From Methanocaldococcus indicus (GTDB taxonomy: Archaea > AGJL01 > Methanococci > Methanococcales > Methanocaldococcaceae), in NCBI RefSeq assembly GCF_049554935.1, contig NZ_CP186926.1:224001-288000 (forward strand): 64,000 nucleotides of DNA, written 5' to 3'. The position numbers and the translations under genes were made by a program. Under the pieces are notes generated by a model. The model saw only the letters and a program-made list of their open reading frames with translations. It did no database searches and was not told the origin of the DNA. Below are positions 2,904 to 33,520 of the stretch, piece by piece. The first letter of the stretch is position 1, and every line of letters begins with the position of its first letter.

Positions 2904-3023
2904 GTTATCACCAATAACATTCAATAAATTAGAATTTAAAAACAAAAATAGGACTTTATATAACTTAACCTTTTTGGTTTTAAATTTTAAAAATAAAAAA
3001 TAATTATATAGAAAAATAATTAT

Positions 3024-3317
3024 TTATCTGGAATAGCAACAACAATGATGATATGCATAGCATTTACAATGACAACAACAGTGATTTAACCCTTCATAAG
3101 TACAGTTATCACATGGATAAGTATTGTTTATATATATACAATGGCAATATCCGTGGTTTAATCCTCCACAATTACAGTTATCACATGGGCATGTATTGTT
3201 CATACATAAGCAACATATATTATTCAAATTTGTCTCATTGAAATTTGCAGAAACTCCAACTATACAGAAAAATATTACTCCCAAAAGTCCCAAACCCACA
3301 AATAGCTTTTTCATCAT
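3024..3317 (-). CDS. Small exported Cys/His-rich protein with an internal duplication
   Basis: GGTGAT RBS then ATGATG (3317/3314); signal peptide MKKLFVGLGLLGVIFFCIVGVSA; 19 Cys and 6 His in about 73 mature residues; 72-bp internal repeat. Confidence 0.7.
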   Translation of the reverse strand: MMKKLFVGLGLLGVIFFCIVGVSANFNETNLNNICCLCMNNTCPCDNCNCGGLNHGYCHCIYINNTYPCDNCTYEGLNHCCCHCKCYAYHHCCCYSR

Positions 3318-3410
3318 ATCACCTATATATGTAGTATATTTGCTACACAAGTAATATAATGCATACACCAAATATATAAATTTAACTAATATCCAACATT
3401 ATAAATATTT

Positions 3411-29987: not shown

Positions 29988-30649
29988 ATGCAAATTCCTA
30001 TGCTAATATGCCGTTTAAAAACAAATAAACCACTAAAAAAGTCACAAACACCATTATTAAGAGGATATATCTTAAACAAGTTTGGAAAAAAGGATTATGT
30101 TGAACTACATAACCATAGTGGAGAAGGTTTTGTCTATATATATCCAAAAATACAGTATAAAATTATTGGTGGAGATGCTGTTTTAATTGGTATAAAAGAG
30201 GGAATAAATGTTTTAGGAGACATTATTTTAGATATAAAAGAGCTAGATTTAAAAGGAGAAATTTATAAAGTTGTTAATGGATATGTAAGAGTAAAATTAG
30301 AAGAGTTTGGAGTTGCAGATGACATGATTAAATATAAATTTATCTCACCATGGATTGCTTTGAATGAAAAAAATTATTTAAAATTTAAAAATTTAGATAA
30401 AGAAGGAAGAAAAAAATTATTAGAGAGGATTTTAATTGGAAATGTTTTGTCAATGAGAAGTATTTAGATTATACAGTTGATAAAAAGATAGAAGTAGAGA
30501 TTTTAGAATTTAAAGATTTTATAGTTAAATATAAAGGAGTTGAATTTATTGGTTTTAAAGGAGAGTTTTTAATTAATTTTAACATTCCTAACTATTTAGG
30601 AATTGGAAGAAAAGTATCCAAAGGTTTTGGAAGTGTTATAAAAGTTTAA
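29988..30649 (+). pseudogene. cas6: Cas6b CRISPR endoribonuclease with a 1-nt frameshift at about 30457
   Basis: LRGY, LHNH, YPKIQYK, SPWIALN, LIGNVLSM; alternative frame continues KYLDYTV...F..NFNIPNYLGIGRKVSKGFG (Cas6 G-rich loop) to TAA 30647-30649. Confidence 0.88.
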
Positions 30650-30730
30650 TTGTATATAATACTGCTTTTTAAAATATACAAATTTTTTCATGTCAGTAAT
30701 ATTTATATACTACAAATTATTATAATCTTA

Positions 30731-30754
30731 ATGTGTAGTAAAAATACTACATAT
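30731..30754. promoter_or_regulatory. Inverted repeat ATGTGTAGTA-AAAA-TACTACATAT downstream of the TATA box
   Basis: Near-perfect palindrome at the expected start site after TTTATATA (30702-30709); a third TACTACA half-site at 30708-30714. Confidence 0.45.
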
Positions 30755-30765
30755 TGGTGATACAT

Positions 30766-32313
30766 ATGATAAAGAAGTTATTAATAGCTATGTTGTTGGC
30801 TTTCTTTACAGTAAGTGTAGGGGCCAATACAGTTATATTAGTAAGTGATAATTCAGCAGATTATGCAACAGCCTTACAATTAGCAGAAGCTTTAAATGCA
30901 ACTGTCATAACAACTGAGTGGGGAATATATAATGAAAGTGTTGTATCTGAAATTTTAAATTTAAGTCCTGATAAAGTTATTGTTGTAGGAGGTCCATTAG
31001 CTGTTGTCAATAACTATACAACTGAATTAGAAAACAACAACATTGAGGTTATAAGAGTTGGAGGACAAGATAGATATCAAACTAATGGCTTGGTTTTAGA
31101 GCAATTCAAAAATCAAATAAGAGAAAGATTTAACAATACTGCTTGTGTATGTCATGGCTTTGATGAAGTTGCTTTAAATGAATCAGTTTCCTTTATAAAA
31201 AATGGTAGTTTAGTTGTATTAACAAATGGTATCAACTTATCAGTAAATCCAACTGAGTTAAATATAACAAAAGTTGTAGTTGTAGATAATCCTGTCTGTC
31301 CATTCTGCAACTACACAAAATTAGCTAAAAGATTACAAGAAAGATTTAGAATACAAGTTCAAGTAAAAGAAATAAATCAAAATAGAATAAAGATTATGCT
31401 TCAAAATAGATTAAGAGTATTAGAGAGAAAAATGATAATGTTAAAAAGAAGAGGTATAGATGTTAGTGACTTAGAACAAAAAATTAATGAAGTTAAACAA
31501 TTAATTGAACAAAATAAATTAGAAGAAGCTTATAAAATTATGGTTCAGTTAGAAGAGCAATCTATGGTTAAAGTTAGATTACATCTTCATCCTATGCCAG
31601 GTAGAATGATGAACAATACAAATAGAGGAGGACCACATCATATTATGAATCATACAGTTGCAAGAGGAAAAATGTTTGTAAATTCAAATGGGACAATTGA
31701 TGTAAGAGGTTTAAGAAATGATATAAATACAATGCCTTACCAAACTATAAATGAAGAGGAAAAAGAAGGACTTTTACATATGTATGAAGAGGAAAAATTA
31801 GCAAGAGATGTTTATTTAACATTATACAACAAATGGAAACTGCCAATATTTGAAAATATTGCAAATGCTGAAAAAACACATATGGCAGCAGTTGAAAGCA
31901 TATTAATAAAGTATAATATAAGTTATCCAAAAGATGAAGGAGTAGGTAAATTTAACAACTCTGAACTACAAGAACTATACTACAAATTAGTAAGTGAAGG
32001 TAATAAATCAGTTGTTGATGCTTTAAAAGTTGGATGTACTATTGAAGATTTAGATATTTATGACCTTCAACAATGGATAAACAAGACAGATAATGCGGAT
32101 ATAAAAACTGTATATGAAAACCTAATGAAAGGCTCAAGAAATCACATGAGAGCTTTCTATAAATTATTAGTTCAATATGGAGGTAATTATACACCTCAAT
32201 ATATAAGCCAAGAAGAGTTTAATGAAATTGTAAATTCTGAAATTGAAAGAGGTCCTGCAAGTGGAAATGTAGGAATAGGTGGCCAGAGAGGTTTTAGTAA
32301 AGCTATGCAATAA
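30766..32313 (+). CDS. Secreted protein: cell-wall-binding-2 repeat + coiled coil + DUF2202 ferritin-like domain
   Basis: Signal peptide; IVVGGPLAV...RVGGQDRYQT; EEEKLARDVY, AEKTH, IEDLDI.DL, GSRNH.RAF, Y.PQYIS. Confidence 0.8.
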   Translation: MIKKLLIAMLLAFFTVSVGANTVILVSDNSADYATALQLAEALNATVITTEWGIYNESVVSEILNLSPDKVIVVGGPLAVVNNYTTELENNNIEVIRVGGQDRYQTNGLVLEQFKNQIRERFNNTACVCHGFDEVALNESVSFIKNGSLVVLTNGINLSVNPTELNITKVVVVDNPVCPFCNYTKLAKRLQERFRIQVQVKEINQNRIKIMLQNRLRVLERKMIMLKRRGIDVSDLEQKINEVKQLIEQNKLEEAYKIMVQLEEQSMVKVRLHLHPMPGRMMNNTNRGGPHHIMNHTVARGKMFVNSNGTIDVRGLRNDINTMPYQTINEEEKEGLLHMYEEEKLARDVYLTLYNKWKLPIFENIANAEKTHMAAVESILIKYNISYPKDEGVGKFNNSELQELYYKLVSEGNKSVVDALKVGCTIEDLDIYDLQQWINKTDNADIKTVYENLMKGSRNHMRAFYKLLVQYGGNYTPQYISQEEFNEIVNSEIERGPASGNVGIGGQRGFSKAMQ

Positions 32314-32347
32314 ACTTTTTATATCTCTTTTTACTTTCTTAAACTCT

Positions 32348-33520
32348 ATGTTTAAAGATAAAAATATCCTTGTTCTCTGGCTCACTACATTTATTACTAT
32401 GTTGGGTATTGGTATTATAGCTCCTATTTTATCAATATATTCAAAAATATTAGGAGCAAGTAATTTAGAGATTGGTTTAATTTTTGGTAGTTTTGCATTA
32501 GCAAGAACATTAGCACAAATTCCAATAGGTTATTTATCAGACATCTATGGAAAAAAGATATTTATTGTTATAGGGACTTTTTTTTGTAGTGTTTTTACAA
32601 CTGCTTATGCATTTGTCCATACTGTATATGAGTTAATTGTTGTTAGAATGTTAAATGGTGCTTTTTCTTCATTTATAACTCCTGTTGCAGGAGCATATAT
32701 CTCTACAATAGCTCCAAAAGATAAACATGGAGAATATATGGGTATTTTTGGTAGTTCTTTGGCATTGGGATTTGCATTAGGTCCATTGTTTGGAGGATTT
32801 TTAGCTCAAATAAATATAACATTACCCTTCTATTTTTGTGGTGCTATTACATTCATAGCTTTTTTATTATGTCTATTTAAGTTAAAAAATATTGAAGTTG
32901 TAGATGGTAAAGTAAGATTTACCAATAAATTAATATTGTATAACAAAAAACTGAAATCAAATAAAGTTATTCCAACAGATTTTTTTAAAAATAGAAGATT
33001 TTCATTAGCATATATTTTAAATTTATTATATATTTCTGCAATGTCTGGAATTATGGTATATCTCTCCTTATATGCTTATTCTTTAAAGTTATCATTAGCA
33101 AGTATAGGATTTTTAATATCCTACACAAACATCTTATCTGGAATGACACAGAGAAAATTTGGAGGTTTTTATGATAAATATGGAAAGAAAGTTGCATATT
33201 ATGGAATTGTATTAATTACTCTTGGACTAATTTTATTAACAATCTCTAAGAATTTTACAGATTTATTGTTAGACTTAACATTTTTCTCTATTGGAGGAGC
33301 AATATTTTCTCCTGCTGTTAATAGTATTGCTATGGAAAAAATAGATATAGAAAAAAAAGGTTCTGCAATGGGATTATTTACAACAAGTTTAAATATTGGA
33401 ATGTTAGTAGGAGCAATTATCTTAGGATTTATAGCTGATTTATTTGGAATTAAAACAATGTATTTGCTGGTAGGAATAGTATTTTTTATTTTTTCAACAG
33501 TAATTTTAAGGACTATTTAG
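32348..33520 (+). CDS. MFS transporter (DHA1-like)
   Basis: GYLSDIYGKK motif A, R.L.G, LGPLFGG; 12 TMs. Confidence 0.9.
   Translation: MFKDKNILVLWLTTFITMLGIGIIAPILSIYSKILGASNLEIGLIFGSFALARTLAQIPIGYLSDIYGKKIFIVIGTFFCSVFTTAYAFVHTVYELIVVRMLNGAFSSFITPVAGAYISTIAPKDKHGEYMGIFGSSLALGFALGPLFGGFLAQINITLPFYFCGAITFIAFLLCLFKLKNIEVVDGKVRFTNKLILYNKKLKSNKVIPTDFFKNRRFSLAYILNLLYISAMSGIMVYLSLYAYSLKLSLASIGFLISYTNILSGMTQRKFGGFYDKYGKKVAYYGIVLITLGLILLTISKNFTDLLLDLTFFSIGGAIFSPAVNSIAMEKIDIEKKGSAMGLFTTSLNIGMLVGAIILGFIADLFGIKTMYLLVGIVFFIFSTVILRTI

Follow-up and report, generated by a model that had tools for sequence, protein, structure and literature searches.

The 64,000-nucleotide stretch of Methanocaldococcus indicus DNA analysed here (contig NZ_CP186926.1, forward-strand positions 224,001 to 288,000; hereafter the window) carries on its minus strand a short gene for P0001, a cysteine- and histidine-rich protein of this genome (G000). 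The gene is real and most likely functional. By sequence comparison its product belongs to a rapidly changing Methanococcales family that had not been named before, and exceeds the other members both in Cys content and in divergence. We favour, at about an even chance, the reading that P0001 is an exported, glycosylated, metallothionein-like metal-binding protein belonging to a cell-surface metal/redox regulon. A metal-related role is favoured because a ferritin-like, His-rich surface protein and a membrane electron-transfer protein lie under the same promoter.

When read from the second of two consecutive ATG codons, the open reading frame (ORF) spans positions 3024..3314 of the minus strand, ends with TAA at 3024-3026, and encodes 96 amino acids. 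The alternative first ATG (3317-3315) yields the 97 amino acids of P0001. The second ATG is the more likely start because it lies 4 nucleotides from a Shine-Dalgarno core (GGTGA, 3319..3323), the spacing found in related genes, because the database copy of the protein has 96 residues, and because an environmental variant carries ATA in place of the first ATG. The arrangement GGTGA-N3-6-ATG is also found in the other promoters of the family. Beyond the stop codon, oligo-T tracts read from the sequence at 2989..3016 (T5 at 3016-3012, T6 at 3000-2995, and T5 at 2993-2989) likely constitute an archaeal terminator between the Cys-rich gene and the signal peptidase gene.

When the 549-nucleotide intergenic region in which the gene is located was shuffled 2000 times with its dinucleotides preserved, an ATG-initiated ORF of at least 96 codons appeared 5 times, so the frame is longer than expected by chance. 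The annotated frame is the best of six by codon log-odds, although its unusual composition keeps the value low (-0.06 per codon; gene mean 0.56). When ferredoxins and antisense artefacts are set aside, this is the most Cys-rich ORF of the genome, whose G+C content is 28.2%.

Residues 1-24 (MMKKLFVGLGLLGVIFFCIVGVSA; 3246..3317) form a predicted Sec-type signal peptide, judged by eye from its basic n-region (MMKK), its hydrophobic h-region (LFVGLGLLGVIFFCIVG), and the small residues at positions −3 and −1 of the V-S-A sequence that precedes the predicted cleavage site. The signal peptides of the family carry V, I or A at −3 and, without exception, A at −1. Presumably, P0001 is exported through the Sec pathway and processed by signal peptidase I. 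The remaining 73 residues (25-97; 3027..3245) make up a mature part that begins NFNETNLNN and contains 19 Cys (26%), 6 His (8%), 14 Asn, 7 Tyr, and 1 Phe. Its cysteines are arranged in CC, CxC, CPCDNC and CCCHC clusters, and there are four N-x-S/T sequons, at N27, N40, N64 and N71. Because the N-x-T sequon just behind the cleavage site is conserved and archaeal N-glycosylation takes place outside the cell, the mature part is probably N-glycosylated at this position.

The mature part contains an in-frame tandem duplication of 72 base pairs, or 24 codons (3056..3208), detected by Tandem Repeats Finder as 2.1 copies with 77% matches. The copies differ at 13 of the 24 codons, with 4 synonymous and 9 non-synonymous changes, which are too few for demonstrating selection. 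Four of the nine non-synonymous differences are Cys/Tyr swaps (TGT or TGC versus TAT). A preliminary description of the window had reported a 97-residue ORF with a ribosome-binding site and signal peptide, a mature part of about 73 residues with 19 Cys, 6 His, these same clusters and sequons, and a 72-base-pair duplication with Cys-Tyr swaps. Translation of 3024-3317, the residue counts, and the codon comparison of the repeats all agree with that account, apart from the likelier start at the second ATG. AlphaFold2 modelled only the signal-peptide helix of P0001, with pLDDT (its predicted score in the local distance difference test) at 47.7 from the single sequence and 44.8 from a 10-row alignment.

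Relatives in the Methanococcales

Direct searches with P0001 found few candidates and no true relative. A word-indexed search of 5.8 billion proteins returned a self-match only, and a HMMER search of 1.84 billion representatives returned P0001 itself plus P0003 (262 amino acids, E 3.6e-6). P0003 was rejected as a homologue, given that it has only a C-x-C...CPCD motif in common with P0001 at 22-25% identity, a likeness judged coincidental. It is a secreted precursor in which the repeat GIGCECITSPCPCDKQH occurs three times, and the common motif is probably a case of convergence. No usable match was found in the ESM Atlas. A six-frame HMMER search of 40 Methanococcales genomes produced only matches with E values of 0.07-1.9 that contain stops or lie inside large ORFs, and at E<=10 it overlooked a true relative, P0004. 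An exact pattern coding for CPCDNC was present in G000 only. A scan of metagenome contigs gave 2 matches to signal peptides in human-gut contigs, which were judged spurious and not used.

A blastn search of the order with the 549-nucleotide intergenic region gave one match above the AT-rich background, in the same-genus genome G008 (E 4.4e-8, 70% identity over 147 nucleotides, positions 3246-3392). This match spans the promoter, the 5′ untranslated region (UTR), and the signal peptide. The G008 gene encodes P0004, a protein of 89 amino acids whose signal peptide ends in V-F-A and whose 69-residue mature part contains 15 Cys, 5 His and N-x-T sequons. P0004 is the first member of a cluster of five genes on the same strand. 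It is followed after a gap of 70 nucleotides by a gene for a 520-residue CWB2/DUF2202 protein, and then by a gene for a 256-residue protein, a gene for a Fer4_5 (NapH-like) polyferredoxin, and a gene for a 192-residue protein.

The CWB2 N-terminal domain was then used to search the order, and the 29 best loci from relatives were taken for a synteny survey. In 13 of these 29 loci, a small ORF bearing a signal peptide and cysteines is located directly upstream of the CWB2/DUF2202 gene. Four of them (group A: G008, G010, G036 and G038) are P0001-like over their full length. Two (group B: G005 and G009) are rich in Tyr, Pro and His and have the tail CPCCGYCRCGCC, and seven (group C: G004, G006, G013, G014, G001, G016 and G007) have a domain of about 100 residues with tails such as GCHCHCGCCCWQQ. 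In at least five of the seven group C genomes, an additional ORF of 45-83 amino acids that begins MPxC(C/H)Y and has one transmembrane helix lies between the Cys-tailed gene and the CWB2 gene. It was seen at loci L054, L055, L061, L057 and L062 and is not listed for G013 and G014. This ORF belongs to no Pfam family and is absent from G000.

A profile built from five group A sequences, P0001 among them, was run against the set of 5.8 billion proteins and matched only proteins from Methanococcales or metagenomes. The members recovered in this way belong to Methanothermococcus, Methanotorris formicicus, Methanococcus aeolicus, Methanocaldococcus sp., and metagenomes. All matches that have a name are a "hypothetical protein", some are unnamed, and none has a precomputed Pfam domain. 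P0001 was returned at E 2.5e-12, a value that reflects its own presence in the profile. In an alignment of 10 sequences, the Ala at −1 (A24), N27-x-T29 and C43 are invariant, and C36, C38 and C60 are nearly so. The members are mainly 83-98 amino acids long, with 8-19 Cys per protein (7%-26% of the mature part) and a sequon within 8 residues of the cleavage site in every case. P0001 fits this pattern, with its signal peptide ending in [AVI]-x-A, an N-x-T within the first 8 mature residues, and a CxC-rich region.

Two observations illustrate how the family changes. P0005 and P0011 are identical over their first 35 residues (P0011 being read from an internal Met) and diverge thereafter. In the metagenomic proteins P0010 and P0011, the Cys-rich module is fused to the coiled coil of a DUF2202-type protein (E 4e-7 over a 34-residue stretch), which argues for a joint function with that protein. 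Both come from contigs of 544-574 nucleotides, and the proteins are probably cut short.

The preliminary description recognised no family for P0001 and proposed a search for homologues with conserved Cys spacing and synteny. No curated model covers the protein, as it had supposed. Homologues do exist in the Methanococcales, with Cys residues that vary in number and position and without the neighbourhood of cdhA that P0001 has. In our survey of the literature on archaeal exported metallothioneins, secreted Cys-rich proteins of Methanocaldococcus, MJ0754, and MJ0750-MJ0756, we found no description of the family, the operon, or the palindrome discussed below. The correction for composition hides such Cys-rich proteins, and promoter DNA together with synteny recovered them. 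Composition-biased proteins can therefore evade protein searches over billions of sequences, yet be found through these two features.

Promoter, palindrome and partner genes

The Cys-rich gene is preceded by an archaeal promoter (3373..3389) composed of a TATA box (TTTATATA, 3380-3373) and an upstream TTAGTTAAA context, both in common with other promoters of the family. A 24-base-pair palindrome, TTGTGTAGCA-AATA-TACTACATAT (3327..3350), lies between the TATA box and the Shine-Dalgarno sequence. When the 100 nucleotides upstream of family genes were aligned (17 promoters from 15 genomes, consisting of the window promoter and 16 others), the consensus read TTTATATA, about 22 nucleotides, ATATGTAGTA-AAAA-TACTACATAT, GGTGA and ATG, where the spacer of the palindrome is N4 in its general form. 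The TATA columns are invariant in all 17 promoters, as is the palindrome core T.TGTAG...TACA.AT. Relative to the consensus, the palindrome of the window (3350-3327) matches at 10 of 10 positions in its right arm and 7 of 10 in its left arm.

Among 40 genomes, its 20-nucleotide core (with at most 2 mismatches) occurs at 11 sites in 10 genomes, compared with none for a reversed-pattern control. The strict palindrome is found 0-2 times per genome and never in controls. Nine of the 11 core sites were checked and all are at the family locus; the 2-mismatch sites of G017 and G026 were left out. Because the palindrome sits where archaeal transcription should begin, it could serve either as the operator of a repressor, placed where the transcript starts, or as an RNA hairpin in the 5′ UTR. 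An ArsR-family regulator encoded beside the G008 cluster is not proposed as the cognate protein, since its G000 orthologue lies in an unrelated purine-gene context and has no CxxC. In many family promoters (L054-L065), the TATA box is closely preceded by another inverted repeat, GTTGTG-N10-12-CACAAC, which may be the site of a second regulator. No clear copy of it was seen in the three G000 promoters.

In G000, the palindrome heads three separate units. The first is the Cys-rich gene. The second, also in the window, is the DUF2202 gene on the plus strand, whose paralogous promoter copy (30702..30761) comprises a TATA box at 30702-30709, the palindrome ATGTGTAGTA-AAAA-TACTACATAT at 30731-30754, and a Shine-Dalgarno sequence, GGTGAT, at 30756-30761. 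The third, located beyond the window (contig C1, near 935080), encodes a secreted protein of 197 amino acids with a CPFG..C..PGxCG..NGxCD motif, followed by a 233-residue NapH/NosR/CcoG-like polyferredoxin. The 197-residue protein is the orthologue of the product of the 256-residue gene in the G008 cluster (E 2e-57), and the DUF2202 proteins of G000 and G008 are 63% identical. By comparison with the G008 arrangement, an ancestral operon has been split into three transcription units in G000, each of which retains a copy of the promoter and palindrome. The three units presumably form one co-regulated regulon.

The DUF2202 gene (30766..32313, plus strand, ATG at 30766) encodes a secreted protein of 515 amino acids. 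This protein consists of a signal peptide, a CWB2 domain, a coiled coil, a conserved His-rich linker of the HLHPMGHG type, and a C-terminal ferritin-like DUF2202 domain of the MJ0754 type. The last domain matches MJ0754 of M. jannaschii (E 2e-75), for which four structures titled "uncharacterized protein" are available (PDB 3Q4N, 3Q4O, 3Q4Q and 3Q4R). MJ0754 is thus a likeness of the partner and not of P0001, and the G000 protein differs from it in that the DUF2202 domain is fused behind a signal peptide, CWB2 domain, coiled coil and His-rich linker. In bioRxiv 10.1101/2020.01.10.902569, DUF2202 is described as ferritin-like and as occurring in ferrosome iron-storage clusters. The polyferredoxin matches the NapH, NosR and CcoG models, in each case below the model cut-off. 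Partner proteins of G025 and G037 carry long repeats rich in His, Glu and Asp. A complex prediction for mature P0001 with residues 200-515 of the DUF2202 protein scored 0.00 against a mark of 0.32, which speaks neither for nor against binding.

Several smaller observations concern these partner genes. The CWB2/coiled-coil proteins behind the palindrome at L068 (98-1201, G025) and L066 (G037) end in HEMHKETHNE-like repeats, with 18 His in 367 amino acids. In the same two genomes, DNA that resembles the 3′ end of a group A gene and has no intact ORF lies before the next CWB2 gene, and may represent a family gene in decay. In the window, cas6b (29988-30649, plus strand) lies immediately before the DUF2202 promoter and is split between two frames near 30465-30470, into pieces of 159 amino acids (Cas6b_N plus Cas6b_C positions 2-50) and 59 amino acids (Cas6b_C positions 56-114). 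This split may come from a frameshift or a sequencing error, or mark a pseudogene, and would be another sign of rearrangement in this region. At the other end, a major facilitator superfamily (MFS) transporter gene (PF07690, E 1e-69; 32279-33520, plus strand) shares about 35 nucleotides with the 3′ end of the DUF2202 gene if it starts at GTG. The two genes may be co-transcribed, and the transporter gene has no counterpart in the G008 cluster.

The gene can also be followed in natural populations. Near-identical DNA is present in two metagenome runs (X2 and X3) of one study, which is distinct from the study of the possible source run. A metagenome contig of 300 nucleotides spans 2958-3257 with 2 differences, and the gene therefore also occurs at this locus in an environmental population. 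Seven listed variants fall within codons 1-20 (codon arithmetic by hand), of which five are synonymous third-position changes (L9, L12, V14, F17/L17 and I19). The remaining two are a conservative change of Phe17 to Leu and a substitution that leaves ATA in place of the first ATG. Upstream, the variant seen most often (3342 G>A, plus strand) converts GTAGCA to GTAGTA and so brings the left arm of the palindrome back to the consensus. A 601-nucleotide contig from X3 follows the window over 3719-3230 and diverges from it beyond that point, with a loose end of 30 letters that, in a hand translation, stays in frame past codon 29 and encodes a related Cys-containing sequence. The mature region has no cover in X3 and a lower summed depth in X2, values that are unusable as evidence of replacement or absence. 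An apparent joint of 3008 to 3258, which skips 249 nucleotides, was not used, its shorter side being 21 letters with 85% likeness.

Possible functions

Under the favoured reading, P0001 would leave the cell through the Sec pathway, lose its signal peptide after V-S-A, and receive an N-glycan on the N-x-T sequon. The mature part would then bind thiophilic metal ions or metal-sulfide clusters outside the cell through flexible Cys/His clusters. Genes of this family would normally head an operon that also encodes an S-layer-associated CWB2/coiled-coil/DUF2202 protein, a secreted CPFG..C..C..C protein, and a NapH/CcoG-like membrane polyferredoxin, with the whole operon under one promoter with the 24-base-pair palindrome. 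In G000, a rearrangement would have left the Cys-rich gene between the signal peptidase gene and cdhA. Composition and gene context together suggest metal binding. The preliminary description had also proposed an extracellular metal scavenger or detoxifier. That part of its proposal gains indirect support from the ferritin-like DUF2202 protein and polyferredoxin that share the palindrome and from the His-rich partners, while the connection it drew to nickel does not (see below).

Metallothioneins such as SmtA/BmtA and PmtA offer the closest comparison in kind. Like P0001, they are small and very Cys-rich, with CC, CxC and CxxC clusters plus His, and they are low-complexity proteins with internal duplication and no confident fold in the apo form (pLDDT 45-48 for P0001). 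P0001 has the small size, the Cys content (26%), and the CC and CxC motifs by which metallothioneins are recognised. It differs from them in that it has no sequence relationship to these proteins, is predicted to be exported by Sec, has conserved sequons, contains much Tyr and Asn, and belongs to a putative surface-protein regulon. P0001 is thus metallothionein-like in kind, yet without membership in the class, as it falls in no metallothionein sequence family, is exported, and is rich in aromatic residues.

The variability of the cysteines is informative in this respect. The 8-19 Cys per member and the Cys/Tyr swaps between the repeats fit a constraint at the level of composition, as in metallothioneins, and not a fixed disulfide framework. 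A drifting number and position of Cys with retained composition is typical of metal-thiolate binders, unlike disulfide-knotted toxins or defensins.

Several findings weigh against the metal-binding interpretation. No Pfam or NCBIfam model, metallothionein models included, matches P0001 at E<=0.1, and the best match in a PDB sequence search has an E value of 0.13, which places the protein outside the curated metallothionein families. Similarity between mature parts is weak (BLASTP of P0001 versus P0004, E 0.017). A hidden Markov model (HMM) built without P0001 detects it only when the composition correction is switched off, in which case P0001 ranks first among 4339 ORFs of G000 (33 bits, E 1.6e-8; runner-up 20.6 bits); with the correction there is no match at E<=100. 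Classical metallothioneins are poor in aromatic residues, whereas P0001 contains 7 Tyr and is exported, and the classical proteins are cytosolic according to the abstract of PMC8790569. The synonymous-codon score of the gene, 0.30, is slightly under the 5th percentile of long genes (0.33). The gene is no longer beside its partners, with the DUF2202 gene about 27 kb away (30766) under its own promoter copy. Loose half-sites of the palindrome are not enriched within G000 (TGTAG-N6-9-CTACA, 9 versus 8 in the control; TACTACATAT, 8 versus 8), and the case for the palindrome therefore rests on its conservation across genomes. Finally, the DUF2202 domain gives a weak rubrerythrin match (E 0.006-0.007), and the partners suit a role in redox chemistry or oxidative stress equally well.

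This last point leads to the most plausible of the alternatives, which we nevertheless consider unlikely. P0001 might be an extracellular thiol/redox component that is kept reduced through the NapH-like polyferredoxin. Together with the rubrerythrin/ferritin-like DUF2202 protein, it would scavenge O2 or H2O2 on the outside of a strict anaerobe living in the mixing zone of vent fluid and sea water, or else it would relay electrons to acceptors outside the cell. Such a role would agree with a promoter shared with a NapH/NosR/CcoG-like Fe-S protein and a DUF2202 protein that weakly matches rubrerythrin, and an odd, variable number of Cys would suit a sacrificial or buffering function. However, the His-rich and His/Glu/Asp-rich segments of the partners indicate metal binding, the cluster contains no thioredoxin- or peroxiredoxin-like gene, and no redox-sensing regulator was identified.

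The conserved signal peptide and strongly diverging mature part of these small, exported proteins, a pattern seen across strains and species, would also be expected of a disulfide-stabilised secreted peptide directed at other cells, such as an archaeocin-like antimicrobial or a signal under fast diversifying selection. We regard this as quite improbable. Toxin and defensin families rich in disulfides conserve their Cys framework, whereas here it is unconserved (8-19 Cys, Cys/Tyr swaps, and an odd total of 19 in P0001). Moreover, no immunity or transporter gene lies alongside, and the habitat is strongly reducing.

It is more doubtful still that the ORF is decaying or non-functional, a relocated operon fragment that is no longer expressed or needed. 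Its separation from the usual partners, its low synonymous-codon score, and the degenerate left arm of its palindrome could be read in this way, and the internal repeats (4 synonymous versus 9 non-synonymous changes) cannot show selection. Against this, the promoter, Shine-Dalgarno sequence, start codon, signal peptide and reading frame are all intact despite many stop-prone TGT and TAT codons. Variants of the signal peptide in the population are mostly synonymous, the commonest upstream variant restores the palindrome arm, and a near-identical copy (2 differences in 300 nucleotides) is present in a metagenome run of a different study.

As an alternative, the preliminary description had suggested the precursor of a thioether-crosslinked peptide. 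That P0001 gives rise to such a (ranthipeptide/sactipeptide-like) product, in the manner of CrpA/CrpC of Methanococcus voltae, is scarcely credible: the Cys-rich repeats and a single C-x-x-D motif (C43-P-C-D46) are compatible with it, and a SPASM radical S-adenosylmethionine (SAM) enzyme of the Methanococcales does modify a Cys-rich protein according to PMC13692751, but G000 (99% complete) has no SPASM (PF13186) or TIGR04463 match at E<=0.001, no radical-SAM gene is found in the G008 cluster or among the annotated ORFs of at least 90 amino acids near P0001 (12 over about 8 kb upstream and 20 over about 16 kb downstream), and the N-terminus is a family-conserved Sec signal peptide with a signal peptidase I site and not the leader of a ribosomally synthesised and post-translationally modified peptide.

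The Crp proteins remain of interest for comparison. CrpA/CrpB of M. voltae, which go together with the radical-SAM enzyme CrpC, are, like P0001, Cys-rich repeat proteins of the Methanococcales, and PMC13692751 describes them as up-regulated on pyrite, with a proposed role in Fe/S acquisition. As presented there, they differ from P0001 in having at least 100 amino acids, a leader-like N-terminus, an adjacent SPASM radical-SAM gene, and thioether links. The survey in that report left out proteins of fewer than 100 amino acids, so most members of the present family (mainly 83-98 amino acids) would have been missed. Other Cys-rich proteins are mentioned in the pyrite proteome of M. voltae (PMC9431491).

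The metal-binding reading of P0001 can also be considered alongside metal buffers from other organisms and the physiology of its host.

Csp1 of methanotrophs and Hpn of Helicobacter are Cys-rich or His/Cys-rich buffers of Cu or Ni. Csp1 is exported, by the Tat pathway, and is a folded four-helix bundle, and Hpn is cytosolic. General protein searches turned up no similarity of P0001 to either protein. [quoted passage not shown] A bolder version of the favoured reading, which we put forward tentatively and think on balance improbable, is that these proteins are the first exported, N-glycosylated, metallothionein-like family of Archaea and act as the capture module, hypervariable between strains, of an unrecognised surface machine in vent methanogens. 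A ferritin-like protein anchored in the S-layer and a transmembrane electron conduit of the NapH/CcoG type would complete it, with a single palindromic operator for all the parts. Such a machine might draw thiophilic metals or Fe-S units out of sulfidic fluids or minerals by reductive dissolution, or might detoxify them.

Whatever its exact role, an apparent orphan has become a testable system that consists of an exported Cys/His-rich family, a conserved set of partners, and a sharply defined 24-base-pair palindrome. The partners are a surface ferritin-like protein with a solved structure, a secreted protein that carries a Cys motif, and a polyferredoxin of the membrane. The system also offers an example of an operon that has broken into three units, with a promoter copy retained by each.

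Genomic neighbourhood and the nickel question

In the window, the Cys-rich gene is divergent from cdhA (TIGR00314; 3495-5810, plus strand). On its other side are three genes on the minus strand, which encode an archaeal signal peptidase I (TIGR02228; 2274-2945), a signal-peptide protein of 208 amino acids that belongs to no Pfam family (1648-2274), and CfbE (NF033197, E 6.5e-114; 489-1664). The preliminary description had placed the gene head-to-head with cdhA and beside the signal peptidase-cfbE genes, and the family models confirm these neighbours. From this position it had drawn a link to nickel, through the carbon monoxide dehydrogenase/acetyl-CoA synthase operon and the biosynthesis of cofactor F430.

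All 17 genomes of the genus yielded the signal peptidase gene. Neither a Cys-rich ORF nor cdhA precedes it in any of the 16 same-genus relatives, and none of the 12 relatives in which the N-terminus of cdhA was located has such an ORF upstream of cdhA. Because this neighbourhood is absent in relatives, the place of the gene between signal peptidase and cdhA is a rearrangement specific to G000. The nickel link, which depended on the adjacency to cdhA and cfbE, is therefore without comparative support.

The 208-residue protein has a signal peptide that ends in a conserved Cys in a lipobox-like context (..SLC|LNN; ..SMSMC|LNN in relatives). A counterpart of this protein follows signal peptidase I in all 16 same-genus loci, with cfbE next to it in some genomes only.

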